Below are positions 36,524 through 57,217 of a stretch of 64,000 nt of DNA, one piece after another. Made by a program: the position numbers and the translations under genes. The notes beneath the pieces are model-generated. The model had not been told where the DNA came from and did no database searches. It saw only the letters and a program-made list of their open reading frames with translations. Numbering within the stretch: position 1 is the stretch's first letter; every line of letters begins with the position of its first letter. The stretch comes from Blastocatellia bacterium (GTDB taxonomy: Bacteria; Acidobacteriota; Blastocatellia; UBA7656). The stretch lies in contig CAVXWP010000009.1 of assembly GCA_963765495.1 (NCBI GenBank), forward strand, positions 269,653-333,652, written 5' to 3'.

Positions 36524-38020
36524 CTAAACCTTTACGATTTTTTTCACCGAAGCTAAATCGTCCGGCCCAAGTTCTCTAGTGAGCAAAAGCGCGCCCACGT
36601 AGATCAACGAAAGAACAACAAGCTCTATCAATATCACTGGTTTTGATGTCGAAGAATATGCCCGCGAGGCCAGATAGACTACTCCCGCGGAGGCGGCGAT
36701 TCGCAATACCGACAGCATCGGGATTATCGAGCCAAACTTGCTGATGAGATAAATGCTCCCAACGACCGTCCCCAATAACATTGCGGCAGTCGTAGCGATG
36801 GCCGCCCCCCTGAGCCCGTAAGCCGGTATCAAGACCGCGTTGAGCGCGGCGCTTGCCACAAGCGTCAAGGCCGCAAGCAGGACCGAAACCGCAGGCCGCC
36901 CGCTCGCAGATATTATAGTCGTCAAAACGTATAGCAACCCGAAAAGCAACATCCCGTAAGCGACTATCACAAGCGCGGGGCTGCCCGCCTGATAGTCCTC
37001 GGGCAAGGCGACTCGCAAAACCTCAGAGGCATTGGCCGAAAATAACGTCGCCACCAGAGCCATTATCATCAACGAATACCTGATCGTATTGGCTATGTAC
37101 CCCTGTGTTCTCTGTCGGTCGTTTGCAAAAGTAGATTCCGAGACGAGCGGAAAAATGACAAACGTTGCCGAGATTATTATCTGGTAGGTGATATTCGCGA
37201 TATTGATCGCCGCGCCGTAGGAGCCTACATTCGCGCTCGCGATTATCGGGTCGTCGGATGAAAGAGCCTTGATAAATAACGTGTCAACTTTCTGAAGCAG
37301 GTTCAGGATAAAGGTAAAGAGCAACAGATAACCCTGAAACCTGATCAGGTCCGAGGCGCGAACTTCTCCCGTTCGCTCAGCCCTGCCTGCCACGATCCAC
37401 GACACGGCGAGCACGCTTGCAGCAGCCAGCGCAAATCCTCCCACGCCGCCCATAACCCCATAGCCAAACCACACAAACGCGACTATGAAGATGAGTTTCA
37501 GAGTCGAATAAGTCATATCGAGCGCGGCCTGCGAAAGGAATCGTCTCTGCCCGTTGAAATAGCCCGTAAAGACCGCATAGAAGGAATACGAGAGCGTGAT
37601 CAGCGAAGCGAGGCGCAAGTAATTGACAAGGCTCGGGTCGTTGAGTTGATCGGCAATGAGCGGAGCGAGCAGAAAAAAGCCGAGCGAAGCCCCGCCGCCT
37701 ACAAGCGTCTGCAACCTGAACGCCTTCGCTTTCACAGCTCCGGCTTTTGTCGGTTCCTGCGAAATATATTTCGATACGGTCTGGTATGTGCCCGTGATGA
37801 TGACGGCATTTACGACGGAGACGGCCCCTATAACGACCTGATAATTCCCCACCTCCGCCTTGCTTATCAGGCGCGTCATTATCAGATAAATGCCGTACCC
37901 GCTCAGCATAAACCAGAGCTTTGCTGCCGTGATATAGATAGTTCCGCGCCCCGCGACTCTGGCTACATCAGTTGGCGGTGTTTGCGGTTCTACTCCCTTG
38001 ACGGTTGATAACTGGCTCAT
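36524..38020 (-). CDS. MOP-superfamily polysaccharide biosynthesis protein (Wzx-like oligosaccharide flippase)
   Basis: 498 aa, about 12-14 TM helices, SD GAGGAA. Confidence 0.7.
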   Translation of the reverse strand: MSQLSTVKGVEPQTPPTDVARVAGRGTIYITAAKLWFMLSGYGIYLIMTRLISKAEVGNYQVVIGAVSVVNAVIITGTYQTVSKYISQEPTKAGAVKAKAFRLQTLVGGGASLGFFLLAPLIADQLNDPSLVNYLRLASLITLSYSFYAVFTGYFNGQRRFLSQAALDMTYSTLKLIFIVAFVWFGYGVMGGVGGFALAAASVLAVSWIVAGRAERTGEVRASDLIRFQGYLLLFTFILNLLQKVDTLFIKALSSDDPIIASANVGSYGAAINIANITYQIIISATFVIFPLVSESTFANDRQRTQGYIANTIRYSLMIMALVATLFSANASEVLRVALPEDYQAGSPALVIVAYGMLLFGLLYVLTTIISASGRPAVSVLLAALTLVASAALNAVLIPAYGLRGAAIATTAAMLLGTVVGSIYLISKFGSIIPMLSVLRIAASAGVVYLASRAYSSTSKPVILIELVVLSLIYVGALLLTRELGPDDLASVKKIVKV

Positions 38021-38026
38021 TATTCC

Positions 38027-39343
38027 TCAATGTATTTTTATGATTTGCAAAAAACTCTCGCCCAGACGCGACCAGTCGTAAGCGGCAACCGTTTGCCTTG
38101 CGTTTTCGGCAAGCCGCAGGCCCATCTCGGGATTGCTCAAAATAAGGTTCAACTTATCGGCCAGCATCCGGTGATTCCCCGGCTCGAAAAGCAGGCCGTT
38201 CTGCCCCTCAACGATGATTTCGGCAAGCCCGCCCACATTTGATGCAATGACGGGACACCCCAGAGCCATAGCCTCAAGACAGACGACCGGCAATCCTTCG
38301 GTCCTTCCGCAGGGTAGCACAAGCGAAGGAATCACCACCACGTCGGAGGCGGAAACCAACCGTTCACGTTCATCCGCCCCGACCCTCCCCAAAAACGTCG
38401 CATCCACCGATAAGCGCCTTGCACGCGCTTCAAGCTTCTGCCTCAACTCCCCGTCACCCGCTACGATGAGCCGCGCACCATCAAGATATTGCAAGGCTTC
38501 GAGCAGCACCTCGACTCCCTTGATCTCAATCAATCGACCTATGAACAAAACATTTTTACCGGATGACGATTGATTGTAGGGGCGATTGACGCATGATGTG
38601 CTAACGCACGGCGCGGGCTTATCCCCGTCCGAATCCGCCGTTGGCGCGATGGCAGTCATCGCCCTTCGGGCGATCCGGGCAGGGACAAGCCCTGCCCCTA
38701 CATTCGCCTCGCATGGTTGATTTAGGTTTACGCCCATCGGCAGCACATCTATTTTATCGTCTGCATCGGGGCAGAGGCCGAGGAGTTTGTCTTTCAAATC
38801 TGCGCTCACGGTGATGACGCGGCGACTGGAATTGACTATGAAACGGGCGAGCAGGCGGCCCCCCTTCATTCGAATAAGCAGGTGCAGCGCGCCGGAATGT
38901 TCGATGACGATGTGGGGTTTTCGAGTGAGCCGGGCTATTACCGCACCCGTCAGACCCGAAGGCAGCATCCAGTGGGAACAGATCACATCTGCCGAAAGCG
39001 CCTCTCTGAAAGCTGCTATGAAGAAAGACAGAACAGAAACCAGCGCGGCGATTTTGACCGGCCAGCGCCTTCCGAGCGCGAGATTGAAATCCGCACTCGC
39101 CTGCAAAGGATCAAGAGCCCGGGGCAAAAGCGCGGGCGCGCGTGTCAGGGTGAAGACATCAGGCGGATGGCCATCCGCCTGATGGTCTTCCGCCCGATTA
39201 TCAGAGGGCGCGAGCACGCGGACCTGAAAATCCGAACCGATGCGGCGAGCAAATTCTCGAACATAGCCGCAGGTCTCATCCTCCGGCCCGCGCGGGAACG
39301 AACTGGTGAGGATGAGTATTTTAGGTCTTCTCTGGTTCTTCAA
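38027..39343 (-). CDS. GT4-family glycosyltransferase carrying a ~50-aa insertion encoded by a REP-like palindromic element in the interdomain linker
   Basis: C-terminal GT4 motif EGLPVVCLEAMALGCPVIASNVGG. The segment PCEANVGAGLVPARIA...VNRPYNQ is encoded by the palindrome at about 38640-38705, which recurs intergenically at about 47468-47553. TTG start. Confidence 0.75.
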   Translation of the reverse strand: MKNQRRPKILILTSSFPRGPEDETCGYVREFARRIGSDFQVRVLAPSDNRAEDHQADGHPPDVFTLTRAPALLPRALDPLQASADFNLALGRRWPVKIAALVSVLSFFIAAFREALSADVICSHWMLPSGLTGAVIARLTRKPHIVIEHSGALHLLIRMKGGRLLARFIVNSSRRVITVSADLKDKLLGLCPDADDKIDVLPMGVNLNQPCEANVGAGLVPARIARRAMTAIAPTADSDGDKPAPCVSTSCVNRPYNQSSSGKNVLFIGRLIEIKGVEVLLEALQYLDGARLIVAGDGELRQKLEARARRLSVDATFLGRVGADERERLVSASDVVVIPSLVLPCGRTEGLPVVCLEAMALGCPVIASNVGGLAEIIVEGQNGLLFEPGNHRMLADKLNLILSNPEMGLRLAENARQTVAAYDWSRLGESFLQIIKIH

Positions 39344-39347
39344 TCTC

Positions 39348-40115
39348 TTACTTTGCGCTGGTGCTTTCGCTCTTTTGCGGCAACAGAAAGCCCGGGGCCG
39401 GGTCAGATGACAGCTTGCTTCGAAAATAACTCTTCGCGATGAGATATATGATCGCAGGCACGGCCGTCAACGGATTGATGCCCGAGACCTCATCGCCGTA
39501 GATACACCTGACCGGCACGCTTTCGACCGCAAGCCCCGTTCGAGAAGCGGCAAAGACCATTTCGTTTGGGAAGCCATAGCGGTCATATAACTCGTCAAGC
39601 TCGATCTGTTCGAGCGCCGCCCGCCGAATGACCGTGTATCCGCATTGCGCGTCGAGCGGAATTTCGAATTCTGCCGCATGCCTTGTGAGCCAGCTAAAGA
39701 TCGTATTGCCGATGAACCGGGCCACGGGCATACAGCCTATGGTTTCAAGATGCAGGAAGCGATTGCCCTTCACATAATCGATTCCGCCGACGGCGCGATC
39801 AAGCAGCGCGCTCAAATCCCGTCCGTCCATCTGCCCGTCCCCATCCATTACGCCGATCAGATCGACATCCGCCCTCAGACAATATCTGTAACCTGTTTTC
39901 GTAGCCGCTCCCACACCGCGATTCGCCCCGTGACGAAGCCTGATCAGATTGCCGTTGTCGATCTCGGAGAGCCGCTGCCACGTATCGTCCGTACTTCCGT
40001 CATCAACGGCGACGATCAAATCAACAAAGGAGGGAACTCGACGGATGGCCCGCGCCAGATGATCCTGTTCGTTATGAATCGGCATCACAACCGCTATACG
40101 ATGACCTTTGTACAT
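39348..40115 (-). CDS. GT2-family glycosyltransferase (polyprenyl-phosphate sugar transferase-like)
   Basis: GT-A fold motifs (VVMPIHNEQD, DDGSTDDT, DGDGQ). The ATG at 40115 with a GGAG SD is preferred over the listed TTG at 40127. Confidence 0.75.
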   Translation of the reverse strand: MYKGHRIAVVMPIHNEQDHLARAIRRVPSFVDLIVAVDDGSTDDTWQRLSEIDNGNLIRLRHGANRGVGAATKTGYRYCLRADVDLIGVMDGDGQMDGRDLSALLDRAVGGIDYVKGNRFLHLETIGCMPVARFIGNTIFSWLTRHAAEFEIPLDAQCGYTVIRRAALEQIELDELYDRYGFPNEMVFAASRTGLAVESVPVRCIYGDEVSGINPLTAVPAIIYLIAKSYFRSKLSSDPAPGFLLPQKSESTSAK

Positions 40116-40229
40116 TCTTCGCTCCAAAGATAAGGGTAAGTGAATCGTGAATCGTGATTCGTGAAATAGCTGATTACCTGTTAATTGCCATCAGCCTGTC
40201 AGGTCCGGTCACGCATCACGCATCACGAT

Positions 40230-42023
40230 TCACTTCTCGCGTCTTTTATAAACCGCGATATCGGCTGTTTTTCCTATCTGATCATAGCCCGCGCTCACCA
40301 GATCGCGCACGTTTCTATCTTTCAATTTGTCTTCCATAAGAATCAATTTGAATTGCCTGCCTTCTATCTGCTCAAGCACGGCTTCTCTGTCGCCGCCCTT
40401 CAGACCCACTGAATGCCACCATACAAATCGAGTGGGATTGCTGCGGCCTGTAAGAAAATAAAATGCGGTGCCTCGCTTTGCAAAAGAGAAAATGTAATCA
40501 TCCGTCGAGCTATTGCTTTCAATCAAACTCGCCAGCCCCTCTATCAATTCCGCCTGTCTTCGTCTTACGAGTATTCCGCGCGCGCTATTGATTTGCAGCC
40601 CGGTTCGCTCAATAAAATGAAGGCTTGAATCGAAATGCGGCTGCCAGGTGTCTTTGATGCCCGTCGCAAAGAAAAATACCAGCGGAGCCGCCGCGCAAAG
40701 TAATGTCGCGCGTTTGGAGAGAGGCAAGCGCATTTGAAAATAAGCCAGCAATGCGGGCAGCAATCTTGCCGCAAACAAGGTTGCGAGAAGAAACACGAGA
40801 GGCAGCACTCGCACAAGATGATAGTAATCGGCTCGCGGGTAGAGTTCCAGATATGCGCCTATCGCAAAAAGAGCCGTGAAGACGATTGCTCCGTGCAAGC
40901 GCCACCAATCGCGCCTCAAAGCGTCATTTCGATAAATTCTCTTCAATTGAAAGAAGGCGATTATCACTGCCAGAAAGAATAGAAAGATCGGGAAATAAGC
41001 GACCGCCGCCGAAGCCGATGCTTTAATCCGGTAGAGGCGGCCGGGAATCAAAACGGCCACGGCTCCGGCGCAAACAGTTAAGCCCGCGTAAAGCATAAAG
41101 AGTTTTGGAGCTTTGGTGAGCACTATAAATCCACCCGCAATTATTACGAGCGAGGCGAGCGCAAACGCAGCGACCAGCTTGATCGAGGGAAGCGGAACCG
41201 ATTTCTCTTCCCCATATGCCAGCGCGTGATGCAGGAAATGATCTACCATAGCTCCCAGCGCATTGTTGAAAGCCAGATACAAAACCATCGCCCCGGCGAG
41301 AATCGCAAAGCCTATCCAGTAAATCGCAGCCCGCTTTATGACGACCGAAATCAATCGCGGACGGAAGGCTGATTCGCCCGCGATCATCGCCTCCCTGATC
41401 GCAATTGCCAGCGTGCCCGATCCAAGCAAAAAGATGCCCACGTTGTATTTGAAGACAAAGACTACGCCCGCCGCCATTCCGCCAAACAGTATCCAGCGCA
41501 TCTTTTCGCTCTCGTCATAGTTGAGCATAAAGATCAGACCGCACAGGATAAAGAGCATAGAATATTGAGTCGGAACTATGGCGTAGATGTAATTGTGACC
41601 TAGCCAGAAGAGTGTCAGAGCTACGGGGATGAGCGCGACCAGGGGCGAAGTCAATCTTTGCCCGATGTAAAACACCGCCACGAGCGTGCCCAGCTTGAAG
41701 GCAAAGAGCCCTGCTCTCGCTGTCATGACAGTTGCGCCAAACAGCTTCATAAGCAAGGCGTTTAACCACAGCAGGCCGGGCGTGTAGTTGTAGAGGAAAT
41801 CTCTGTAAGGGACTTCTCCGTTCAAGACTCGTTCGGCGGGCGCAAGGCTATAGCCTATGACCGAAAGCCACAGACCGCGATTTATAAAGATGCCGTAACA
41901 GACAATCCCGGCAAGGAGTGTTATCGCAAGCGGGACAACTCGATTTAAGCCTTTGAGCCGTTCCTGCTTTGTTGAGCGTTCATCCAAACGCGCGGGCTTG
42001 CTTTGCATCGTAGAGCTTTGCAT
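40230..42023 (-). CDS. GT-C fold membrane glycosyltransferase (ArnT/PMT family 39/83-like)
   Basis: 597 aa, more than 10 TM helices. The conserved N-terminal loop GEVPYRDF is shared with the downstream paralog. Confidence 0.55.
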   Translation of the reverse strand: MQSSTMQSKPARLDERSTKQERLKGLNRVVPLAITLLAGIVCYGIFINRGLWLSVIGYSLAPAERVLNGEVPYRDFLYNYTPGLLWLNALLMKLFGATVMTARAGLFAFKLGTLVAVFYIGQRLTSPLVALIPVALTLFWLGHNYIYAIVPTQYSMLFILCGLIFMLNYDESEKMRWILFGGMAAGVVFVFKYNVGIFLLGSGTLAIAIREAMIAGESAFRPRLISVVIKRAAIYWIGFAILAGAMVLYLAFNNALGAMVDHFLHHALAYGEEKSVPLPSIKLVAAFALASLVIIAGGFIVLTKAPKLFMLYAGLTVCAGAVAVLIPGRLYRIKASASAAVAYFPIFLFFLAVIIAFFQLKRIYRNDALRRDWWRLHGAIVFTALFAIGAYLELYPRADYYHLVRVLPLVFLLATLFAARLLPALLAYFQMRLPLSKRATLLCAAAPLVFFFATGIKDTWQPHFDSSLHFIERTGLQINSARGILVRRRQAELIEGLASLIESNSSTDDYIFSFAKRGTAFYFLTGRSNPTRFVWWHSVGLKGGDREAVLEQIEGRQFKLILMEDKLKDRNVRDLVSAGYDQIGKTADIAVYKRREK

Positions 42024-42053
42024 CAGATTCAGCGTCCGGGCATTCAGGCGAAA

Positions 42054-43757
42054 TCACTTTCGCTCGAATATGAGCATCTCGCCAAACTCTTTGCTCAGAG
42101 TGAAATTCTCGCTTATATAATTCCGCATAGGCGGATACTTTTCAGCATCCATGTCTTTTCGGCTCGTGACTATCAGGCAGACATCTTTTTCCTGCACCGA
42201 TCTCAGGGTCTCGGCCCGTTCCGTGTCGCTCACGCCGACGCCTCCCCAGAACTGCGCGCCCGATGGATTGTTTCTATCGGCGAGAAACAGAAGAGACGAA
42301 CCGGCATAGGATTGAGCAAAAAAGTACCCGTCCGGCGCTACCTGCTGTTGAATATAATTTACCGCCGAATCGATTTCGCTCGCTTTGTCTTCGGGAAAAT
42401 AGACACCTCGGCCACGCGCAACGGTCAACTCCGTATTGCTCTTAAATCGAAGGTGATCGTCAAAGTAAGTATTGAAAAACAGCCGCGCACCCATAAGCCA
42501 AAAGATCATCGGCAAGACGCTCAACACGAATCCGGCTCTCTTTGCCCCCCCGAAAAACTCAGGGATGGACGACCTGAAGATGTAGTGGAAGTAAAGTAAA
42601 AGCAGGACTACGAAAGGCATCGCGCCAACAGCTTGTTCGCGTGCAAATCGCGGAAACGATTCCATAAACGCCGCCGCCGCCGCCACAGTCACGGCGAGTA
42701 AAACGGATCGGTCTGTAACTCCGATTTTGCTGCCCAGTATGAACCCCGTAATCCCGGCAGCGATGACGATCATAGGCGCATAAAAAATAAGTCCGTCTAT
42801 CAAATCCTGATCTAAGACCAGTAGGGAAATAATTACAAGTGCAACAATCGAGGCCCAGATCAGGCTCGCTTCCTCGCGGTATCTGAACTTATAAGCAGCC
42901 CACACGCAGGTGGCCAGTAACAAGACAAACATCAAAGGAACCAGAGGCGAGGGCAACCCGGCTAGCCTGCTGACAAGGAACTCGCCCGGCCCGAAAAGCA
43001 GCGTCTTTGCCATTGCCCCGAGCGCCCCCTGAGTCTTCATGAAGATGAGCGCGGGTATGATCAAAACTGCGAATCCTGCCGAAAGCACAAGTGCGCGTCT
43101 GTAATTCTTTATCGCTCGCCTGAGGTTCAGACCTGTCTCTTCGGTATCGAACAGGACCACGGCGATTGATCCGATCAGCGCGTAACCGCCGATGTTATGT
43201 TTGAAGAGCGCGAGCGCGCCCAGCGCCACTCCTGTCGCAAAAAGATAAGCGCCCTTGTGATCGCGCAGAAACCGGATCAACAGATACAGACCCAGCGCGA
43301 GAAACAATTCGCCGTAATGCATGGGCACGGCCTTGAAAGGCCCGTTTGGCCTCAACCAGATGAGCGAATAGAGCGCGGCACTAAACGCCCAGCTTCGCGA
43401 CATTATCTGTCGCGCGCTCAGATAGATCATCAGCGTTGTGAGCGTTTTGAACAGGGCTACGCCAAGCATCGCGTTATACAAAGAGATACCCATTAATTTG
43501 AATATCGCCGCGTTGAGATAAATTATCGCGGGCGGGTAAAGAGTATGAAAATCTCTATACGGCACCTCTCCGGCAAGTATTCGTTCCGCGCCGAAAAGGT
43601 TATATCCGATTGAATAAGAGAGTCCGCTTTCGTGGTTGAAGAGTAATCCGAACAGCGTTCCGGCGAGAGCAAGCACGAGGAAGGCAGTCGCCACGTCCTT
43701 CAACTTTTCGGCGTGGGCAGGAACCCCATTTTCGATTTGCATAGCGCGCGAAATCAT
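42054..43757 (-). CDS. GT-C fold membrane glycosyltransferase paralog (ArnT/PMT-like)
   Basis: Loop GEVPYRDFHTLYPP; polytopic. The ATG at 43757 with a GGAAGAG SD, 14 nt after the upstream stop, is preferred over the listed 43961 start, which would overlap the upstream gene. Confidence 0.55.
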   Translation of the reverse strand: MISRAMQIENGVPAHAEKLKDVATAFLVLALAGTLFGLLFNHESGLSYSIGYNLFGAERILAGEVPYRDFHTLYPPAIIYLNAAIFKLMGISLYNAMLGVALFKTLTTLMIYLSARQIMSRSWAFSAALYSLIWLRPNGPFKAVPMHYGELFLALGLYLLIRFLRDHKGAYLFATGVALGALALFKHNIGGYALIGSIAVVLFDTEETGLNLRRAIKNYRRALVLSAGFAVLIIPALIFMKTQGALGAMAKTLLFGPGEFLVSRLAGLPSPLVPLMFVLLLATCVWAAYKFRYREEASLIWASIVALVIISLLVLDQDLIDGLIFYAPMIVIAAGITGFILGSKIGVTDRSVLLAVTVAAAAAFMESFPRFAREQAVGAMPFVVLLLLYFHYIFRSSIPEFFGGAKRAGFVLSVLPMIFWLMGARLFFNTYFDDHLRFKSNTELTVARGRGVYFPEDKASEIDSAVNYIQQQVAPDGYFFAQSYAGSSLLFLADRNNPSGAQFWGGVGVSDTERAETLRSVQEKDVCLIVTSRKDMDAEKYPPMRNYISENFTLSKEFGEMLIFERK

Positions 43758-43771
43758 CTGCTCTTCCGGGA

Positions 43772-44857: not shown

Positions 44858-45582
44858 TACTTTGACTGCTGCTTTCCGCGAGGCTTCGAATGAATGTTGA
44901 TCCAGATGCGCGCAAGCTCGGCAAGCGTAGAAAAAACATGACTCGGACGGATGGTTGAACGACCCGCCGGTCTCGGGTAATGCCGCACTCCTATTTCGGC
45001 CATCCTGAAACCGTAGTATCTGGCCTTTGCCAGCACCTCGGCATCGACAAAGAACTTCTTCGATTCGATCTTTATCCGATCAAATATTTCGCGGCGAAAC
45101 AGCTTGAACGCGCAATCAATGTCTCGCACCTTTATCCTGAAGATTATCCTCACAATCAGGTTGAATACCCAGCTTATCACGAGCCGGGTCAGGGGGTCGA
45201 AGCGGTATATGCGGAACCCGCAAACCAGATCGGCGTCCTCGATCAGCGGAAGTAAATCGGTAAGCTCTCGAACATCGAATTGATTATCCGAGTCGGTGTA
45301 AAAGATGAGTTGATGGCGGGCGCTTGTAAAGCCTGTCTTTAGCGCCTCGGCGTACCCTTTGTTTGGATTATGATGCAGCACGCGGATATGATCGGGGTCA
45401 TTACGCGCCAGATGGTCGGCGATCTCGCCCGTGCGATCCCGCGAGCCGTCATTTACTACGATAACCTCCCAATCCTTGAGCGGAAGCGACCGCAGCACAT
45501 CGGCCATTCGGGTTGTGGCCGTCTCGATATTCTCTTCTTCGTTATAGGCCGGAAGTACGGCTGAGATGCTGTCAAAAGGCAT
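44857..45582 (-). CDS. GT2-family glycosyltransferase (dolichyl-phosphate glucosyl/mannosyltransferase-like)
   Basis: AVLPAYNEEENI, VVNDGSRDRT and TDSDNQ motifs of GT-A polyprenyl-phosphate glycosyltransferases. Confidence 0.8.
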   Translation of the reverse strand: MPFDSISAVLPAYNEEENIETATTRMADVLRSLPLKDWEVIVVNDGSRDRTGEIADHLARNDPDHIRVLHHNPNKGYAEALKTGFTSARHQLIFYTDSDNQFDVRELTDLLPLIEDADLVCGFRIYRFDPLTRLVISWVFNLIVRIIFRIKVRDIDCAFKLFRREIFDRIKIESKKFFVDAEVLAKARYYGFRMAEIGVRHYPRPAGRSTIRPSHVFSTLAELARIWINIHSKPRGKQQSK

Positions 45583-45698
45583 AGAGTGATCCGTGATGCG
45601 CGATACGCGATACGTGATTCGTGATTCGTGACCGGACCTGACAGCCAGTCAGCGTTTCCCTGCTATCTCCCTATAAATCACGCATCACACATCACGCA

Positions 45699-47580: not shown

Positions 47581-47668
47581 GTCTTGGCGAGAAGTTCAGT
47601 TTCCCGCAAAAAATTGATCAGGATTGTCACGTGATACGGGCAGGCTAAAAACTGACCTTCCCACCCAT

Positions 47669-49141: not shown

Positions 49142-49206
49142 GCTTCCGATCCCGAATATGAGCGTGTGCTTTACGGTCTTTTTTATCTTGTCGTAAATCG
49201 TAACCC

Positions 49207-51873
49207 TTACTCCTGTCGAGCCGCGCGTCTCTGTCTTCGCACAAACGCTATGATCAGAAACGCAAAGACGACTCCCGCCCCGGCCAGGCTCGCATAAACG
49301 GAAGACCAGAAGGCTGCGGGCGCAAATTGAAATGATACCACATGACCGCCGGGCGGCACTCTTACGGCCCGCATGGTGATATTGGCTTGCAGGATGTCGG
49401 CAGGCTCCCCGTCAATCGTAGCCCTCCAGCCGGGATAGTAATTATCGCTCAGCACCAGCAGGCCGCCCTGTTCGCTTTCCGTAGAGATCACAACCCGGTT
49501 GCGAGCGTCTTCGGTTATCCGAGCCTCGCCGCCGGATTTGAGATTTGAGATTTGAGATTTGAAATCTGGGGTTTCAGATTGCGAATTATCAGGCGCTTCG
49601 ATGACGGCAGTCGTGTGAGGGTCGAAACCCGGATCGTTCATCGCCGAGATCGCATACGAATGGTTGGGAACCGTCTCCGCCTGCTCCGCAAAGAACGCGC
49701 GCGGCAGGGCCTGTTTGTTCTCATAAACCGCGATTCCCTCTTCCGAGGCAATCAGGTCATAGCCTTCAAGAGGCGGGAGCGAACTGTGAGTCAGCACATA
49801 CCTGACATTCAACAGGTCGAAATATCGAGAGCGGGCCTGATCGAAGACTACGTGGCTCAAGTAGGGCTGTTTCTCGATGAGCGCGGCATACTGGCGATAC
49901 CACTTTGGAAACTGCTGATTCTTTCCCGTCACGGTCGAGATGCGATAGGGCAGCAGAGTGTTTGGCGGGGCGATGATCTTCTCTCTATCGGGCAAATCCG
50001 ACGCCCGGCGATTCGTGTCGAGATCGGAAGGGACTATGAGCACGCGGCCCGGTGGGAGCCGGTGCAACAATTCGGTTATCTTTGTTTCGGGAAAGACACG
50101 CGAGCGATCAAAGGTCGGGTTGAATTGCGCGCTGTTCCAGAAGAGGTCTACTAAAAGCATTAGCATCAACAGGGCAAAAAAAGCTCTGCTACTCAACTGC
50201 GACGAAGCGAATTTGCTCAGCAGGATTACAACTCCGACAATCAGCGCGAGCGGTATGATCAGCGCGGCATCGGGCGGCGTAAACTGAGCGGCAAGCGCGG
50301 CTGCCGATCTTCGCAGGAAAGCGATTTTACCCGATTGCTCGTTGTCCAGGGCGAATCCGGTTAGCTCTAACAGGTAAGACGCGATGACTCCTAAAATCAC
50401 AAATGCGATTGCTCCCCACAGAAACTTTCGAGCGATGCGGGCAAAAGAAGCTAGCAGGTCCGGCTTCGCACTCAAGAGCAAATCGATTCCAAACGCGGCA
50501 AGCACAGCCGCCGCGAATATGAACAGTACCCAGGCGCGAACTATCACGCGAATGACCTGCAAGACGGGGATAAACCTCGTCATATGAACATAAATCGGAG
50601 CCGCAATCATTATGACCAGAGCAAGGGCGGCAAGCAGGGCGAAGAAGACGACGCGGGGACGCTGAGACGCTGAGAGGCGGCGATTCTGTTTCAGCCAGAA
50701 AAGGCCGAAGCCGAGCGGGGCAAGCGCGGCAATGCCCATATACAGGATGTGGTCGTGCGAGACTCCGAGCGCGGTAAAGATTCTGACTATTTCGGCGTCG
50801 TCGGCCGTGCCAAAGAGATTAGGAAAAACCAGCGTAAACAGATACCACGGGGGCAAGTAGATGTAACCCAGTTCCGTTGGCACTATGCGCCGGTTTGAAA
50901 ATCTGAGCAATTGCATCACGGGAATCCACGCGGGGGCCGCAAGCAGGAAACCTACCACGAGAGTTACGGCAAGCATCCCGAGCGCATTCAAGTTTTTCTT
51001 TGACCGCCAGTTCTTGAATTCGAATGCAAAGAATAGGTAGTAGAGCGCAATCGCGCCTACGTAATAAATCTGGTTCTGCATCCATCCGCAATAAAATTGC
51101 AGCGCCAGGAAGACGCCCGCGATAATCGCCTGCGTGTAGCTCTGCTGCCTTGCGGCGCGGTCTACGAACAGCAGGATCAGCGGCAGCCACATAAGCCCGC
51201 CCCACCATCCAAGCCCCGTAACGTGTAATAACGAATGCGACGACAGAACGAATACGAGCGCGCCAAGCAGGCTGGCGGGCTCGCTCGCGCCCACTCCGAT
51301 AAGAAAGATGTACATGAAGATTGCCGCAAGCATCAGTTCAAAGATGCGGGCGAGTGAATAGCCTAGCGGCACGTCAAAGAATTTATAGAAAAGCAGAAAA
51401 GGCGAAAGCGTTCTGGTCACTCCGTCGGCATAGATGGGGTGCCCCGCCATCGTGTAGGGATTCCACAACGGCATCTCTCCATCGCGGTACGCCTGAACCA
51501 CAAAGTAATCGCGCGTTATATAGGTATCGGTCAGATCGCGGCGGTTGTAGTTGTAATCGATGCTCTCGCCCGCGTAGTACCCCCAGGGAAGCTGATTGTT
51601 GAGCGTGGCTACATCGACAAAAGTCTCGCCAAGAAAGAGCACCCGCCAGAACAGGGCTATGATAACCAGCGCGAGAAACGAGGCATTTACAGCGTGGCGC
51701 TGAAAGGATGAAGGATGAGGGATGAGGGATTTCAGGAGGGATAAGGGATGAGGGATGAGGGATTTCAGGAGGGATGAGGGATGAGGGATGAGGGATGAAA
51801 AGGACTCTGAGGAATTATCCTGATAACCAGCGGGCCGCTTTTCATCAGACTGTCGCGTCAGAATCTTTTTCAT
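49207..51873 (-). CDS. YfhO-like large polytopic membrane protein (putative GT-C glycosyltransferase); N-terminal boundary uncertain
   Basis: Multi-TM N-terminal body and the conserved YfhO-type C-terminal region LSDNYYPGWRATIDGEP...GGHVVSFQF plus a final TM. The 5-prime ~170 nt of the listed ORF is built from the GGGATGA heptamer-repeat element (SLIPHP repeats), so the true start may be downstream. An in-frame TTTGAGA heptamer block sits at about 49531-49565. Confidence 0.55.
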   Translation of the reverse strand: MKKILTRQSDEKRPAGYQDNSSESFSSLIPHPSSLLKSLIPHPLSLLKSLIPHPSSFQRHAVNASFLALVIIALFWRVLFLGETFVDVATLNNQLPWGYYAGESIDYNYNRRDLTDTYITRDYFVVQAYRDGEMPLWNPYTMAGHPIYADGVTRTLSPFLLFYKFFDVPLGYSLARIFELMLAAIFMYIFLIGVGASEPASLLGALVFVLSSHSLLHVTGLGWWGGLMWLPLILLFVDRAARQQSYTQAIIAGVFLALQFYCGWMQNQIYYVGAIALYYLFFAFEFKNWRSKKNLNALGMLAVTLVVGFLLAAPAWIPVMQLLRFSNRRIVPTELGYIYLPPWYLFTLVFPNLFGTADDAEIVRIFTALGVSHDHILYMGIAALAPLGFGLFWLKQNRRLSASQRPRVVFFALLAALALVIMIAAPIYVHMTRFIPVLQVIRVIVRAWVLFIFAAAVLAAFGIDLLLSAKPDLLASFARIARKFLWGAIAFVILGVIASYLLELTGFALDNEQSGKIAFLRRSAAALAAQFTPPDAALIIPLALIVGVVILLSKFASSQLSSRAFFALLMLMLLVDLFWNSAQFNPTFDRSRVFPETKITELLHRLPPGRVLIVPSDLDTNRRASDLPDREKIIAPPNTLLPYRISTVTGKNQQFPKWYRQYAALIEKQPYLSHVVFDQARSRYFDLLNVRYVLTHSSLPPLEGYDLIASEEGIAVYENKQALPRAFFAEQAETVPNHSYAISAMNDPGFDPHTTAVIEAPDNSQSETPDFKSQISNLKSGGEARITEDARNRVVISTESEQGGLLVLSDNYYPGWRATIDGEPADILQANITMRAVRVPPGGHVVSFQFAPAAFWSSVYASLAGAGVVFAFLIIAFVRRQRRAARQE

Positions 51874-51900
51874 CCCTCATCCCTCATCCCTCATCCCTCA
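51703..51900. repeat. Second, expanded copy of the GGGATGA-heptamer palindromic element (internally duplicated left arm)
   Basis: GGATGAAGGATGAGGGATGAGGGATTTCAGGAGGGATAAGGGATGAGGGATGAGGGATTTCAGGAGGGATGAGGGATGAGGGATGAGGGATGAAAA - spacer - TTTTTCATCCCTCATCCCTCATCCCTCATCCCTCA. Confidence 0.7.
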
Positions 51901-53541
51901 AAGGTATCCCAGGCTGCGTAGTTTTTCTTCGATTAATTTTTCTTCCGATTCGGTCAGCCTGCTTTCAGGCGCGGACGAAGTGGAAGCGGGTGAATCGGTT
52001 TGCAAAGGATGTTGAGCCAGAAAATCATCGGCGCAGGCTTCCGTTAAGACGCGCCCGTCGAGGTCGCCGGGTACGGGAAGCCCGGCCAGATACATAATCG
52101 TTGGAACAAGGTCGTAAACCGTGGGCGAAGCAATCGCGGCTTGCGGGCGTATGCCGGGCCCTTTGCAAATCAGGATGCCTTCCTGTCTGTGGTCGCCACT
52201 CCACCAGAACCCGCGAGCGCGCACCTCGTCGGGCGGCTCGCCAAGATTCGCCTGCGTATTCCAGTAAACATACAGGTCGCTTGCTCGGGTGGTGAACGGG
52301 CCTCGGTAGACCTCATCGCGCATGGCTACGCGCTCGACCACAGGGTTGCCGCGCGCATCGGTCCACTGGCTCAATTTTTCGATGATCTGTTTGCAGGTCT
52401 TTTTATAGTCTGCGGCAGGGACGCGGCCTTCCGCATTGCGTCCGGCAAGATTGATGTTTATAACGTGGCGGCCCGGTTCCGTGTAAGCCATGGTGCGCGA
52501 CCAGTCGATTGATGAGTAAAACGAATCTTTTTCAACCGCCTGCAATCTTTCGACGCGAGATGCGCCCATGCCCGATTTGATCTTTTCTCTGATCGAGGGA
52601 GGCAGCAGAGTGCGCGCCGCGCGTTTGCCCGCGCCTATCAAAGAGGCGCGAGTCTGAGCCTGATTGCTGCGCGTCATGAAGCCGTTTGATTCGAGCCATT
52701 CGGCCAGATGATAAGACGCGCCCGTGTGCGGTCCCATACCATGATCTGAAATGACGTAGACCTGAGTGCTGCTGTCTGCGTGCTTCAATAAAACGGCCAT
52801 CGCAGAATCGAGCGCCTTATAGATCGAAAGCAACGCATCGCCCGACCCAACGGCCCCGGCCTTTTCAGGCTCGTCTTGATTATGGTCGAGATACCTCCAG
52901 AGGTTATGGCCGCCCCAGTCGCTTGCGGTGTAAACGGTCATGAAAAAATCTGTGGAGCGCGACTCCAAGAGGTATTCGGCGGCGGCGGTCTGAGCTTCGA
53001 TCAGCTTCATCCAGAGGGCTATCGCATCATCGATCCGACCCGCGCTCATCAAATCGCCAAGCCCCTGCGGCGTGAAGTGATAATCGGGAACGCGCGCGAG
53101 CAACTGAGAGCGAAGCTCTGCGGGAGAGAACGCATCTTCATTTAGTGCCGGAGCATCGAGACCACTCACAAGGAATCCGCCCGGCGCGCACTCGGCCGGG
53201 TAAGTCATCGGCACGTTGAGAAACCCCGAGGTCAAACCGTGTCGGTGAAGGTGCGCGCCTACGAGTTCGCCGTGCCGGTCTCCGCCTTTGAAAAAGACCT
53301 GGCGGCCTGTCTCGAAATCCCGATCCGAAAAGACAAACAATCCGTGGCGACCGGGATTGAGTCCCGTAAGAATGGAGGTCCACGCCGATGCGCTGTGCAT
53401 ATTCGGGGTTGATAGAAAACGCGAGCTTGCGCCTTCCTCGATCAACCCGGCGATGACAGGCAACTGGCCCGCCCGACACCACGGCTCAATCAAATCCATC
53501 GTAGCCGCATCGAGTCCGATGACTAAAATCTTTGGCTTCAT
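51898..53541 (-). CDS. Cytoplasmic AP-superfamily (phosphodiesterase/NPP-like) enzyme, paralog 2, ending ...SEEKLIEEKLRSLGYL
   Basis: MKPKILVIGLDAAT, nucleophile region STPNMHSASAW and SDHGMG. No signal peptide. Confidence 0.7.
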   Translation of the reverse strand: MKPKILVIGLDAATMDLIEPWCRAGQLPVIAGLIEEGASSRFLSTPNMHSASAWTSILTGLNPGRHGLFVFSDRDFETGRQVFFKGGDRHGELVGAHLHRHGLTSGFLNVPMTYPAECAPGGFLVSGLDAPALNEDAFSPAELRSQLLARVPDYHFTPQGLGDLMSAGRIDDAIALWMKLIEAQTAAAEYLLESRSTDFFMTVYTASDWGGHNLWRYLDHNQDEPEKAGAVGSGDALLSIYKALDSAMAVLLKHADSSTQVYVISDHGMGPHTGASYHLAEWLESNGFMTRSNQAQTRASLIGAGKRAARTLLPPSIREKIKSGMGASRVERLQAVEKDSFYSSIDWSRTMAYTEPGRHVININLAGRNAEGRVPAADYKKTCKQIIEKLSQWTDARGNPVVERVAMRDEVYRGPFTTRASDLYVYWNTQANLGEPPDEVRARGFWWSGDHRQEGILICKGPGIRPQAAIASPTVYDLVPTIMYLAGLPVPGDLDGRVLTEACADDFLAQHPLQTDSPASTSSAPESRLTESEEKLIEEKLRSLGYL

Positions 53542-53582
53542 AGAAAACTTCGGGTCTCAAATCTCAAATCTCAAACCTGAGA

Positions 53583-55196
53583 TCATTCGATGTATCCGAG
53601 TGCTCGCAATCGCTCGCGCAATTCGGCCTCTTCACCTTCCTTGTAAACCGGCTCAGACTCGGGGCCGTCTTTTCCGCCCTGCCTGTATGAACTCCCCTGC
53701 CGCGCAAGTTCTTGATGGTCGGTGAAGATTTCTGTGAGCGCCCGCCCGTCCATGTCTTCGGTGAGCGGAGAGCCGAGCGAGTAAAGCGCCGTCGGGCCTA
53801 CATCGCGGAGGTTTGGCAAAGGGTCGAAATCGGTCTGACTCTTTATGCCCCGGCCCCAGGCGATAAATATCCCGTCGCGCGAGTGCGTACCCGTAGTCGA
53901 ATCGGCCGGGACTATCAGGTCGCCATAGCTCGGGCGTTCGTTGTATACGTATTCGTCTCGTCTGGGGATCATCACAAGATCGGGCAGGCGGTCGGCCCAT
54001 CGCCCTCGAAATGCTTCCTTGCGGCTCATTACTTTCTCAAATACCGGCTCGCCGTCTTCGGGCGAGATCAATTTTTTTAACGCCGCTCGCGCTTCTTCAA
54101 GCACTTCATCAAACCGGCTTTCGCTCACCCTTCCCTGCGGCTCGCGTCCCGCCAGATTTACCCACACGCCCTTGTCTTGAGCGAAAAAGGCGCGGGTGCG
54201 TTTCCAGTCGATTTCGTCCAGGAACGCGCTGCCGTAAGCTACCTTGCGATCGAGCACGCTGCCCGAGGGGGTCGAGGGCAAGAGCCGCCGCGAGATTTTT
54301 TCTTTTAGCGATCTCACCTTTGCCCGGCCTTTTCTTGAAGCCGGGGTCTTGAATGCTAGCAACCCCGCAGATGCCAGCACTTCATTTACGCGCACCTCGA
54401 ATAGCTCCGAGCAGAAACCGTGATCCGACACTATGAAGACCCGCGCATCGGCGGGTAAACGTTCGATCAGGCGACCGAGCGCCGCGTCGAGTTGTTCGTA
54501 TGTCTCGTGGATAAACGAGCGAAACTCGCGTGGCGCGTTTGGGTCGTGGCGCGGATGCAAAGGGTCCATGTCGGCCCAGTAATCGTGCTGCGCGCGGTCG
54601 AGCACGGAAAAGACCATCATCAGAAAATCCCATTCGCCCTTATCCATCAAAAATTGAGTGACGCGCTCGTGCATAAGTGTTGCTCGACGGAATTCGTCGG
54701 CGCGGGCGCGTTTATCGGGGTTTCGAGTCGGCTCTATGATGTAATCGGGCAGTCGGGCCAGTATCTCTTCCTTAAGCGAGTGCGGGTGCGTGTAATCCGA
54801 TGACGCGCCGGGCGTGAGCATCCCCGTGACCATAAAGCCGTTTATCGCTTCGGGCGGATAAGTGGTCGGAACGTTTACCACGATTGAACGCCCTCCGCCG
54901 CGCTCGGTCAGCAAATCCCAGACGGGCCGGGTCATTATATCGCGCCCGCTCATGGCGTGTACGCCGTAGCTTGCCCTGTCTTTTATAAAAGGCGAAAAGA
55001 CGCCGTGCATCCCTTCGCTTGTTCCCGTAGTGCAGCTTGCCCAGCCCGGAAAGCTGTTTGGCAGAATGGTCGAACGAAGCGGCGCGTGACACCCTTCTGC
55101 CATCAGGCGAGACAAAACGGGCAGGCGTCCCGCTTCCGCTAGAGGCGTGATCAGATCAAAAGTCGCGCCGTCGAGTCCTAAGATTACTGTCTTCAT
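53583..55196 (-). CDS. Cytoplasmic AP-superfamily (phosphodiesterase/NPP-like) enzyme, paralog 3, ending ...EGEEAELRERLRALGYIE
   Basis: MKTVILGLDGATFD, STILPNSFPGW and SDHGF motifs. Overlaps the stop of paralog 4 by 4 nt. Confidence 0.7.
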   Translation of the reverse strand: MKTVILGLDGATFDLITPLAEAGRLPVLSRLMAEGCHAPLRSTILPNSFPGWASCTTGTSEGMHGVFSPFIKDRASYGVHAMSGRDIMTRPVWDLLTERGGGRSIVVNVPTTYPPEAINGFMVTGMLTPGASSDYTHPHSLKEEILARLPDYIIEPTRNPDKRARADEFRRATLMHERVTQFLMDKGEWDFLMMVFSVLDRAQHDYWADMDPLHPRHDPNAPREFRSFIHETYEQLDAALGRLIERLPADARVFIVSDHGFCSELFEVRVNEVLASAGLLAFKTPASRKGRAKVRSLKEKISRRLLPSTPSGSVLDRKVAYGSAFLDEIDWKRTRAFFAQDKGVWVNLAGREPQGRVSESRFDEVLEEARAALKKLISPEDGEPVFEKVMSRKEAFRGRWADRLPDLVMIPRRDEYVYNERPSYGDLIVPADSTTGTHSRDGIFIAWGRGIKSQTDFDPLPNLRDVGPTALYSLGSPLTEDMDGRALTEIFTDHQELARQGSSYRQGGKDGPESEPVYKEGEEAELRERLRALGYIE

Positions 55197-56539
55197 TTAT
55201 ACATCGAGCGCCCATCCATCCCGGCAGGCACCTGAAGCCCCATCGAGGAGAGCAAAGTCGGAGCAACATCCGTTATGTGAGGCTTATCAGAGCGCAGTTC
55301 GCCGGCCTGCGAGCTTATGAATAGCGTAGCGTCATCCTGCGTGTGCATCCCCGTAAAGATTTCGCGGTCCATCAACTCCGTCTTATTTACCGCGCCCTTC
55401 AGATCGTAGCCGTAGACGGGCTGCGCGCACAGATCGGGGGCCGACAAAAGAGCGGGGCCTCGAAATAACTCGTCGCGTTCGTAAACCCGACCGACTACCC
55501 TCTGCCCTTCATCGCTTATCTCCGAAAGCCCCTGCTTTATCTCTTGGATCAGCCTTCCCGCATCCTCAGGGTCGACCGTGCCGCCCGGATACCTGCCCTT
55601 CAGATTTATGTAGACGCGACCGGGGTCCATAGCAAATGCCCGCGAGCCTTCGGCTATCTCTTCAATCGAGCGCGCATTATCTTTGAGGTTGAGATAGCCG
55701 TGATCGGCAAGCCATCGGTTCAAATAGACCTGTTTCTTTATCCCCGTAAAACCGTGATCGCTCATCAGCATAACGGTCTCGTCGCGCAATCGTTCGCCAA
55801 TCTGCCCGATAAAATGATCTACGCGGCTGTAAAACTCTCTGAAGGCCGAATGGTATTTGTGATTCTCGTCTTCAATCGCGTCCATGAAGAAATGCTGCAA
55901 GCGGTCGGTTTCGGTCACTACGCCTACAAACAGGTCCCACGGCTCGTTGTCATACAGATCGAGCATCACAGCCACGCGGCGTTCGAGCGCCTTAAGGATG
56001 TCGTCCATCAGCGCATCGTGCGACTGCTGCACTTTGCGCGCATCAACGTCGATGCGATAATCCATCCGTTCGAGCTTTGGAACAAGCTCTGCCGGGTAGG
56101 TGGCTTTCTTTATATCAATAGCCACAAACCCTGAAATGAGTATGCCGTTCAAAGGCTTTGCCGGATAAGTCGAAGGCACGTTGATGACGATTGAGCGGCG
56201 GCCCTGACTGCCCACGGCGTCCCAAAGCGTCTGGCTCTTGATGTGGCGCGAATTTGGGAAATAGATTTTGTAGCTGTTCGGCTGAAGATCGAGAAATCCG
56301 TAAATACCGTGGCGTCCGGGGTTTGCGCCGGTCATAAAAGATGTCCACGCCACAGATGAGATGTCCGGGATGGAAGTGTCCATCTGGAGCAGGGTTCCGC
56401 GCCGGGCCATCTCACCCATTCGCGGCATGGTGCCGTCTTCGATAAAGCGGCGCATCAGCGTGCAGGGAGTGCCGTCGAGCCCGAGAAGTACGGCGCGGCG
56501 CGGCGACTCCTTTGATTTGAATCTGTCAAACAGTCCCAT
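55193..56539 (-). CDS. Cytoplasmic AP-superfamily (phosphodiesterase/NPP-like) enzyme, paralog 4, lacking the C-terminal tail
   Basis: LLGLDGTP, TSIPDISSVAW and SDHGF motifs. Ends ...GRSMYK. Confidence 0.7.
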   Translation of the reverse strand: MGLFDRFKSKESPRRAVLLGLDGTPCTLMRRFIEDGTMPRMGEMARRGTLLQMDTSIPDISSVAWTSFMTGANPGRHGIYGFLDLQPNSYKIYFPNSRHIKSQTLWDAVGSQGRRSIVINVPSTYPAKPLNGILISGFVAIDIKKATYPAELVPKLERMDYRIDVDARKVQQSHDALMDDILKALERRVAVMLDLYDNEPWDLFVGVVTETDRLQHFFMDAIEDENHKYHSAFREFYSRVDHFIGQIGERLRDETVMLMSDHGFTGIKKQVYLNRWLADHGYLNLKDNARSIEEIAEGSRAFAMDPGRVYINLKGRYPGGTVDPEDAGRLIQEIKQGLSEISDEGQRVVGRVYERDELFRGPALLSAPDLCAQPVYGYDLKGAVNKTELMDREIFTGMHTQDDATLFISSQAGELRSDKPHITDVAPTLLSSMGLQVPAGMDGRSMYK

Positions 56540-56545
56540 GCTAAA

Positions 56546-56604
56546 ATCCAGAGTTTTGAGTTTTGAGTTTTGAGTTTTGAATTAACTCAAAATTCAAAAC
56601 TCAA
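56546..56604. repeat. Heptamer-armed hairpin (GAGTTTT)4 GAATTAA CTCAAAATTCAAAACTCAAAACT between AP-family paralog 4 and cysC
   Basis: Near-perfect inverted repeat of tandem heptamers. A sister copy at about 57351-57416 lies upstream of cysC. Confidence 0.7.
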
Positions 56605-56611
56605 AACTTGC

Positions 56612-57217
56612 TTAAACGTAGCCGAGAGATTCGAGGCGGCGGCGCACTTCCTCGTCGTCATCTTCGGAGTAGATTTCAGACTCGACATAAGGAATCAGCA
56701 TCATCTCTTCGAGTTTGTTGATGATGCGAAGGGCGCTTTGTTCCGGCGTCTCCAGATTTGTTTCGACGATCACATCGGGCGAGAGAGGCTCTTCGTAAGG
56801 GTCGTCGATGCCTGTGAAATTCTTGATCTCGCCCGCGAGAGCTTTTTTATAAAGGCCCTTTACATCGCGGTCGGCCAGCACGTCAATCGGGCATTTAACA
56901 AAGACCTCTACGAAATCGCCGATCATCTGACGCACCTCATCGCGCACGGCGCTGTAAGGCGAGATCGCCGCCGCTATGGCTACGACATCATTGCGTGTCA
57001 GCAGGTTGCAGACAAACCCTATGCGGCGGATGTTTGTGTCGCGGTCCTCTTTTGAAAAACCGAGCCCCTTTGAAAGATTGGTGCGAACTATATCGCCGTC
57101 AAGGACTTCGACCTTATGATCGCGCCTTTTCAACTCGGCTTCGATTCTGCGCGCAAGCGTAGTCTTGCCCGCCCCTGAAAGCCCTGTAAACCAGATAGTA
57201 AATCCTCTTTGTGCCAT
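56612..57217 (-). CDS. cysC: Adenylyl-sulfate (APS) kinase with an appended C-terminal tail ...[17 protein letters not shown]
   Basis: P-loop GLSGAGKTT and canonical APS kinase core over ~170 aa, then a ~30 aa extension. The ATG at 57217 with a GGAGATTAT SD is preferred over the listed 57295. Confidence 0.85.

Follow-up and report, generated by a model that had tools for sequence, protein, structure and literature searches.

CysC and cytoplasmic alkaline phosphatase-superfamily paralogs with a common C-terminal tail: candidate glycan sulfotransferases in a Blastocatellia locus

Introduction

The closest described counterparts of the proteins considered here are archaeal. In Halobacterium salinarum, the alkaline phosphatase (AP)-superfamily proteins Agl30 (VNG1056C) and Agl31 (VNG1057C) sulfate the N-glycan linked to dolichol phosphate (DolP), as established by gene deletion and heterologous expression (PMC11980604, 2025). 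Each of the two serves a different sugar or position, and Agl31 is a soluble cytosolic protein that works on the lipid-linked glycan before flipping. Here we describe a bacterial locus that resembles this arrangement. It occupies positions 36524-57217 of a window of 64,000 nucleotides (the whole stretch of DNA analysed) from a Blastocatellia bacterium, contig CAVXWP010000009.1, and combines four AP-superfamily paralogs (AP1-AP4) and the adenosine 5'-phosphosulfate (APS) kinase gene cysC with genes for glycan assembly. As with Agl30 and Agl31, several AP-superfamily paralogs stand in one glycan cluster, and the cytosolic location of Agl31 is a further likeness to the function we propose. CysC and three of the four AP proteins end in the same C-terminal tail, and cysC adjoins an AP gene in loci of several phyla. 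We put forward the AP paralogs, with confidence about evenly balanced, as sulfotransferases that use APS or 3'-phosphoadenosine 5'-phosphosulfate (PAPS), have cytoplasmic or lipid-linked sugars as their acceptors and associate physically with CysC.

Sulfation of DolP-hexose in Haloferax requires Agl7 (HVO_2046; PMC3892788). The presence of PAPS-synthesis genes inside a polysaccharide cluster is a hallmark of sulfated glycans, exemplified by the capsular polysaccharide cluster of Vibrio KMM 8419 with cysNDC (PMC11641403). Canonical PAPS-dependent carbohydrate sulfotransferases, such as those of this Vibrio cluster, share the genomic logic and the predicted donor and acceptor class of the present locus, but have an entirely different fold from its AP proteins and transfer the group directly, with no covalent enzyme intermediate. 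The nucleotide pyrophosphatases/phosphodiesterases (NPP/ENPP) and the phosphonoacetate hydrolase PhnA (PDB 2gsn, 4gtw, 1ei6 and 3szy) have the same two-metal ligands and a Thr or Ser nucleophile at the aligned position. Known enzymes of these groups are secreted or catabolic hydrolases, whereas the proteins described here are cytoplasmic, contain an extra insertion, bear a tail in three cases out of four and are encoded in a glycan and PAPS operon. In LtaS, EptA/MCR-1 and OpgB, a Thr nucleophile at an AP-type metal site serves transfer via a covalent intermediate. Those proteins are membrane-anchored and extracytoplasmic and move phospho-alcohols from phospholipid donors; the window AP proteins, in contrast, are soluble and cytoplasmic. 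The downstream half of the operon has candidates for each part of the three-component extracytoplasmic glycosylation systems, namely a GtrB/ArnC-like family 2 glycosyltransferase (GT2), a flippase, and a GT-C or YfhO protein. The known systems lack the module of CysC and AP paralogs found here, which could modify the lipid-linked sugar before flipping. The locus is best filed with the AP-superfamily glycan sulfotransferases, to which it would add a bacterial member of an NPP-like branch, coupled to CysC and linked to it by a tail.

Results

The C-terminal tail of CysC and the AP paralogs

The genes for the presumptive sulfation module are listed below in the order of transcription.

56612-57217, minus strand: cysC, APS kinase, first gene of the operon (PF01583, E=9e-62; NF002059, 280 bits, cutoff 244)
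55193-56539, minus strand: AP4, 448 aa, short, without tail, nucleophile Ser61 (PF01663, E=2e-46)
53583-55196, minus strand: AP3, 537 aa, long, with an insertion at about residues 285-326 and tail ...EEAELRERLRALGYIE (PF01663, E=2e-43)
51898-53541, minus strand: AP2, 547 aa, long, tail ...EEKLIEEKLRSLGYL (PF01663, E=6e-30)
45699-47378, minus strand: AP1, 559 aa, long, Thr nucleophile, tail ...EEIRERLRGWGYLG (PF01663, E=7e-34)

The stop of AP4 and the start of AP3 overlap by 4 nt. Orthologs favour the Met at 47378 as the start of AP1, though the longest open reading frame (ORF) reaches 47504.

At the C-termini of CysC, AP1, AP2 and AP3, an acidic run leads into an amphipathic helix and Gly-Tyr, RLxxLGY[LIV]; AP4 lacks this ending. 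The motif lies at the very C-terminus and can be written [IVL]xxRLxxLGY[LIVM], with the helix pattern ExxLxxRLxxL: AP1 ends in ...EEIRERLRGWGYLG, AP2 in ...EEKLRSLGYL and AP3 in ...ELRERLRALGYIE. Among the 440 ORFs of the window (stop to stop, at least 60 aa), these four alone carry it, at the following sites.

56615-56662, minus strand: tail of CysC
53586-53633, minus strand: tail of AP3
51901-51945, minus strand: tail of AP2
45702-45743, minus strand: tail of AP1

The distribution of the tail was then recorded in related loci, designated by L numbers. A scan with AP4 orthologs as the query, limited to one genome per species, returned 80 loci onto which the window proteins were mapped: 34 of Blastocatellia type and 46 more distant ones (41-51% identity). 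Two metagenomic relatives bring the sample to 82. The census by protein class is as follows.

Long AP proteins: tail in nearly all
AP4-type proteins: tail in 0 of 75
CysC, main cluster: tail in 31 of 32
CysC, loci of other phyla: tail in 5 of 6
PAPS_reduct-like proteins: tail in 4 of 4
Sulfatase-family proteins with Thr at the formylglycine position: tail in 2 of 2 intact ORFs and in one frameshifted (L082)
Remaining ORFs, about 840: about 2 chance matches

The tail thus spans proteins of four different folds, each tied to activated sulfate. The sulfatase-family proteins in this census (L001, 18759-20156; L030, 15390-17015; L082, 11323-12753) are cytoplasmic, have Thr-x-P-x-His in place of Cys/Ser-x-P-x-Arg and end in the LGY tail. 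Archaeal sulfotransferases of the Agl31 type may have closer counterparts in this group.

A 32-position profile built from the four window tails was searched against 1.84 billion representative proteins and gave 70 matches at E<=1e-3, of which all but one lie no more than 4 residues from the C-terminus. Among the proteins matched, the full-length ones belong to PF01663, and most of the short ones are C-terminal fragments of PF01663 proteins. The profile also matched a ribbon-helix-helix protein with two copies of the motif, one internal and one C-terminal, and a tailed DUF4214 protein (P0246 and P0272), which hints that use of the motif extends beyond AP-fold enzymes.

In the AlphaFold2 (AF2) model of AP3, the tail forms a helix at residues 520-532 with a predicted local distance difference test score (pLDDT) of about 60, placed on a low-confidence linker; the insertion at 285-326 scores below 50. 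The pattern ExxLxxRLxxL, as far as sequence can tell, resembles a docking helix. The smallest recurring unit among the loci is a tailed APS- or PAPS-binding protein beside a tail-less AP4-type protein, and because this unit pairs the two, the AP4-type protein is the most likely docking partner of the tail.

Association of cysC with AP4-type genes

The catalytic core of CysC is that of an ordinary APS kinase by its NCBIfam matches, which in addition to NF002059 include TIGR00455 at 231 bits (cutoff 139). Its orthologs are 201 aa long, and homolog searches returned only Blastocatellia orthologs for CysC (75-83% identity) and likewise for AP3.

In all 36 Blastocatellia-type loci (the 34 scanned and the two metagenomic relatives), the gene just upstream of the AP4-type one, and co-oriented with it, is cysC. 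The upstream neighbours vary between a permease, Zip and others, and cysC is therefore part of the module. The two metagenomic relatives, too, retain cysC-AP-AP-AP while the genes upstream differ. The preliminary description of the locus had allowed that cysC might belong to an assimilatory sulfate operon continuing beyond the window. Such an operon is rejected by the position of cysC as the first gene of its operon, bounded by a divergent permease gene, and by the conserved adjacency to AP4-type genes.

Orthologs at 70-80% identity bear names that place the organism among the Blastocatellia acidobacteria. In the closer clade, the full order cysC-AP4-AP3-AP2-YfhO-Wzx-AP1-GT2 is preserved. Orthologs of AP1 are 83-87% identical and always adjoin the gene here called GT2b, an adjacency that persists in the distant Blastocatellia loci L027 and L029. 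The conservation of this pair fits the modification of a lipid-linked monosaccharide. Four records with loci 53-78% identical to the Blastocatellia module and fully syntenic with it (L006, L030, L031 and L034) are metagenome-assembled genomes titled 'uncultured Clostridia bacterium'; their taxonomy is probably wrong.

The association extends to other phyla. Among the 46 more distant loci, cysC stands directly upstream of the AP4-type gene in six: three of Thermodesulfobacteriota type (L053, L059, L065), one in Nitrospirota (L073) and one in each of two classes of Chloroflexota, represented by Anaerolineae (L080) and Ktedonobacterales (L081). The last of these has a bona fide sat two genes downstream (567 bits against a cutoff of 387). 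In four Nitrospirota loci, a gene with a PAPS_reduct domain (E=2.5e-23) abuts or overlaps the start of the AP4-type gene. It lies directly upstream of that gene at 545-1378 in L040, 9105-9965 in L044, 9156-9980 in L048 and 6950-7696 in L052. The encoded protein is CysD-like at its N-terminus and CysH-like at its C-terminus, lacks the C-terminal catalytic Cys motif by visual inspection, and has the LGY tail.

In Nitrospirota L037 and L038 (7719-12753) and L073 (6684-12631), the last of which also has cysC, the AP4-type gene is flanked by prsK on one side and prsR on the other. These encode the two-component regulators of XrtA/PEP-CTERM exopolysaccharide production, and both are matched above equivalog cutoffs. 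Other loci outside the anammox group contain Wzx, Wzy, GT4 or sugar-transferase genes.

Family, active site and location of the AP paralogs

All four AP proteins belong to PF01663, with scores of 118 bits for AP1, 105 for AP2, 150 for AP3 and 160 for AP4 against a cutoff of 23, and are 28-33% identical to one another. Their orthologs are named COG3379, 'predicted AlkP superfamily phosphohydrolase/phosphomutase', by JGI; COG3379 is a family without known function. The NPP-type two-metal ligands are intact in every paralog: D53, D248, H252, D306, H307 and H503 in AP1 numbering, arranged as the Asp in GLDG, D..H, DH and H. The nucleophile column reads T/S/S/S in AP1-AP4 and aligns with Thr64 of PhnA. 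The GLDG motif begins at residue 7-22, and the highest 19-residue Kyte-Doolittle window across the four proteins reaches 1.31. With GLDG this close to the N-terminus and no signal peptide or transmembrane (TM)-like segment, AP1-AP4 are cytoplasmic. Alignment and hydropathy thus agree with the preliminary description, which had seen four paralogs with conserved metal ligands and nucleophile regions and no signal peptides.

The AF2 model of AP4 has a pLDDT of 94.5. The nearest solved structures found by Foldseek are PhnA, ENPP1 and the Xanthomonas NPP (TM-score 0.6-0.66, 15-17% identity, E about 1e-17), and a profile search of PDB sequences agrees on them.

Several known families were tried for these proteins and set aside. 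The PhnA model TIGR02335 matches at no more than 36 bits against a cutoff of 407.55, and over the N-terminal 100 residues or so only; at this score, and at the identity to the nearest structures given above, the paralogs do not turn out to be the canonical phosphonate or phosphodiester enzymes that the preliminary description had considered as an alternative. None of the four matches PglZ at E<=0.01. Formylglycine sulfatases are rejected by the lack of a PF00884 match, the Ser/Thr nucleophile and the lack of a CxPxR motif; the sole sulfatase-side signal is a weak SGSH_C match of 18 bits on AP1.

The glycan operon and its surroundings

By ORF listing with Pfam and NCBIfam matches, the locus consists of 14 minus-strand genes, all co-directional and separated by short gaps. 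It is bordered by the convergent mutS (33820-36483) and by a divergent amino-acid permease gene (57507-59459). The order of transcription is CysC, AP4, AP3, AP2, YfhO-like, Wzx-like, AP1, GT2b, UPF0104, two GT-C genes, GT2a, GT4 and Wzx-like. The features not listed above are the following.

57250-57279, minus strand: sigma-70-like promoter match TTTGCA-18-TAGAAT, some 33 nt ahead of the ATG of cysC (57217); a consensus match only and weak evidence
49207-51873, minus strand: YfhO-like polytopic membrane protein, putative extracytoplasmic glycosyltransferase (PF09586, 64.6 bits; about 10 TM-like segments)
47669-49141, minus strand: Wzx-like MOP flippase 2 (Polysacc_synt_3, E=3e-27; 11 TM-like segments)
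44857-45582, minus strand: GT2b, polyprenyl-phosphate sugar synthase-like (PF00535, E=2e-31)
43772-44857, minus strand: UPF0104/MprF-type flippase-like membrane protein, LPG_synthase_TM (PF03706, E=3e-38; TIGR00374, 66.6 bits, cutoff 43.2)
42054-43961, minus strand: GT-C paralog 2, PMT_2-like (PF13231, 31.5 bits, cutoff 26.1; 9 TM-like segments)
40230-42023, minus strand: GT-C paralog 1, PMT_2-like (PF13231, 25.4 bits, just below the cutoff of 26.1)
39348-40127, minus strand: GT2a, second polyprenyl-phosphate sugar synthase-like GT2 (PF00535, E=2e-18)
38027-39343, minus strand: GT4 glycosyltransferase (PF00534, E=8e-39)
36524-38020, minus strand: Wzx-like MOP flippase 1, final gene of the operon, convergent with mutS (Polysacc_synt, E=2e-21)

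This gene content is the one given in the preliminary description, with every member on the minus strand. The best NCBIfam matches of GT2b are ArnC, DolP-hexose transferase, AglJ and PpgS, all below threshold, and those of GT2a are PpgS and AglJ, also below threshold; the ArnC, PpgS and AglJ scores of both proteins lie far under the equivalog cutoffs. Matches to YfhO and PMT_2 are both partial: the YfhO model is matched by the C-terminal 85 or so residues only, and the gene is syntenic across Blastocatellia. The two GT-C proteins are plainly paralogous (26% identity, E=8e-40). In GT-C paralog 2, the longest ORF shares 190 nt with the end of the UPF0104 gene (43772-43961); its initial 60 or so residues look non-genic, and the real start is probably downstream of 43961. 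Candidates for all parts of a glycosylation system composed of a polyprenyl-phosphate sugar synthase-like GT2, a small flippase and a GT-C or YfhO protein are co-located in the operon. We consider it about as probable as not that the locus is a single operon for building and decorating a cell-surface glycan, with its own sulfation module.

No Pfam sulfotransferase domain (Sulfotransfer_1-5 and related families) was found among the scanned ORFs of the window, as the preliminary description had noted, nor in the gene tables of the related loci L001 and L002. Neither sat nor cysDN is present within the window.

Elsewhere in the window, positions 15899-21166 (plus strand) encode a Ser/Thr kinase, a protein with PEGA and formylglycine-generating enzyme (FGE)-sulfatase domains, two DUF4384 paralogs and a trypsin-like protease with CarboxypepD_reg. 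The preliminary description had pointed to the FGE-like protein at 17320-18345 as a hint of sulfatase-related chemistry, though a likely unrelated one. The gene is real; its product also has a PEGA domain, its start overlaps the stop of the Ser/Thr kinase gene, and the cluster of kinase, PEGA and FGE domains is unrelated to the glycan locus. FGE and sulfatase chemistry is rejected for the locus itself, where the nucleophile is Ser or Thr and to which the FGE-domain gene does not belong. A signalling cluster at 5418-13313, which could control how surface polysaccharide is produced, encodes a protein with GAF and HD_5 (HD-GYP-like) domains, a HATPase_c_2 protein of 799 aa, a PocR-GAF-GGDEF diguanylate cyclase and a sigma-54 response regulator.

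Discussion

The preliminary description had proposed PAPS-dependent sulfation on account of the APS kinase. The link to activated sulfate is strengthened by the synteny of CysC, Sat and PAPS_reduct genes across phyla and by the shared tail, whereas sulfotransfer itself is what we infer from sequence. The AP paralogs, three of which share a docking-like tail with the PAPS-making kinase, thereby become the strongest candidates for a bacterial type of enzyme, new in kind, that sulfates sugars. In the proposed scheme, CysC would convert APS to PAPS, and AP1-AP4 would take APS or PAPS as the sulfuryl donor, each sulfating a different position or sugar. The acceptor would be a cytoplasmic, probably polyprenyl-phosphate-linked intermediate produced by the two DPM1/ArnC-like GT2s and GT4. 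The Ser or Thr nucleophile at the two-metal site would receive the sulfuryl group and hand it to a sugar hydroxyl in a ping-pong reaction comparable to those of LtaS and EptA. Flipping of the modified lipid-linked sugars might then fall to the UPF0104 and Wzx-like proteins, and their transfer outside the membrane to YfhO and the GT-C pair. The tail, an acidic linker with a helix, would join donor synthesis by CysC and the transferases AP1-AP3 in one assembly, docking most likely on the tail-less AP4-type protein.

Several observations weigh against this scheme. The AP active site is a standard NPP-type site for phosphoryl transfer, and its nearest structures are phosphonoacetate hydrolase and nucleotide pyrophosphatases. 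Our literature search found nothing linking COG3379 or PF01663 proteins to sulfation and nothing bacterial on AP-superfamily sulfotransferases. Agl30 and Agl31 themselves belong to a sulfatase-like branch, with sulfatases as the closest structures, whereas the window proteins are members of PF01663 nearest to PhnA and NPP. The statement of the preliminary description that arrays of cytoplasmic AP paralogs are uncharacterised accordingly needs amending at the level of the superfamily, given the genetic evidence for the archaeal pair (PMC11980604), and stands for the different branch found here. The AF2 model did not confidently dock the tail of AP3 on its own body, so that docking in cis is neither supported nor excluded. 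A canonical sulfotransferase could be encoded elsewhere in the genome, outside the window. Finally, about 22 AP4-type orthologs of anammox bacteria (Brocadiales, 41-46% identity) have no cysC, glycan genes or tailed neighbour. The absence of sulfur and glycan genes from this context means that the AP4-type family is not uniformly tied to sulfation, and the function of its anammox members probably differs. Their genes lie in a conserved five-gene block with a radical S-adenosylmethionine MqnE/CofH-like protein, an Old Yellow Enzyme-type flavin reductase, a metallo-beta-lactamase-fold hydrolase and an isochorismatase-like protein, located at roughly 6800-12700 in each of L039, L043, L046, L049, L051 and about 17 more loci.

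The anammox orthologs, devoid of any sulfur-gene neighbour, are among the observations that agree with a role of the AP paralogs in phosphoryl chemistry, as phosphodiesterases, phosphomutases or phosphotransferases adding or trimming groups on nucleotide- or lipid-linked sugars, with PAPS produced for a conventional sulfotransferase encoded elsewhere or for sulfur assimilation. The preliminary description had also named phospho-transfer and hydrolysis among the options. Membership in PF01663, the full set of NPP ligands, the Ser/Thr nucleophile, the PhnA and NPP structures and the 'phosphohydrolase/phosphomutase' label of COG3379 point in the same direction. We nevertheless judge this explanation unlikely, if the strongest of the alternatives. 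It accounts neither for the presence of the same C-terminal tail on CysC and the AP proteins, nor for the CysC, Sat or PAPS_reduct-like genes beside AP4-type genes in four phyla, nor for the need for four paralogs and the lack of a sulfotransferase in the operons examined. A narrower possibility keeps the connection to sulfate and assigns to AP4-type proteins a housekeeping role in sulfation, as a 3'-phosphatase of 3'-phosphoadenosine 5'-phosphate (PAP) analogous to CysQ or as an APS/PAPS hydrolase, clearing the inhibitory by-product or setting the level of the donor, with transfer performed by the long tailed paralogs or by unknown proteins. Hydrolysis of phosphomonoesters and phosphodiesters is the native chemistry of the fold, NPPs hydrolyse nucleotide phosphosulfates, and the AP4-type gene is the one that always adjoins cysC, its protein never being tailed. 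This division of labour is harder to reconcile with the Nitrospirota loci, where the AP4-type protein is paired with a PAPS_reduct/CysD-like protein and the lack of a nearby CysC leaves no local source of PAP, and with the Thermodesulfobacteriota modules of CysC and tail-less AP proteins only, in which no transferase would be left. It appears improbable, more so than the phosphoryl explanation.

The tail permits an explanation of another kind, in which its Tyr is modified, for instance sulfated by the AP4-type protein with PAPS, and acts as a swinging-arm donor of aryl sulfate or as a regulatory mark. The invariant Gly-Tyr comes after a stretch of acidic residues, as is typical of Tyr-sulfation sites, the tail sits on a flexible linker of low model confidence, and AP-fold enzymes handle aryl sulfates well. 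The idea is nonetheless conjectural throughout, and we regard it as very improbable: the amphipathic ExxLxxRLxxL is more simply explained as a docking helix, we know of no analogue of such an arm, and the same arm would have no obvious role on CysC. Least probable of all, and strongly disfavoured, is the presence of cysC by chance or for assimilatory sulfate reduction only, next to an unrelated AP array. The ordinary APS kinase core and the absence of sat and cysDN from the window are compatible with it, whereas the adjacency in all 36 loci while the genes further upstream change, its recurrence in other phyla and the acquisition of an AP-type tail by CysC in these loci all speak against it. 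The tail on CysC is likewise a point that the phosphoryl explanation leaves unaddressed, and the reading of the AP paralogs as sulfotransferases coupled to CysC remains the one we prefer.

More tentatively, and with less confidence than for the window proteins, COG3379 might represent an extensive bacterial family, so far unrecognised, of glycan sulfotransferases dependent on APS or PAPS, which would operate through a covalent sulfo-Ser/Thr and form a complex with CysC or with CysD/CysH-like proteins, held together by a common docking helix (ExxLxxRLxxLGY-COOH) bound to the AP4-type protein, which itself lacks it. Knowledge of polysaccharide sulfotransferases in bacteria is scant, and biotechnology has a demand for sulfated glycans. 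If the proposal is correct, AP-fold sulfotransfer would reach bacteria and a second branch of the superfamily, beyond a single archaeal case, and the shared C-terminal tail would offer a handle for finding more components and for probing the channelling between PAPS synthesis and use. COG3379, whose thousands of uncharacterised members are annotated as 'alkaline phosphatase family protein', would gain a testable function. The soil Acidobacteria of the class Blastocatellia, together with Chloroflexota, Nitrospirota and Thermodesulfobacteriota, would then be producers of sulfated surface glycans beyond the reach of prediction from current annotation.

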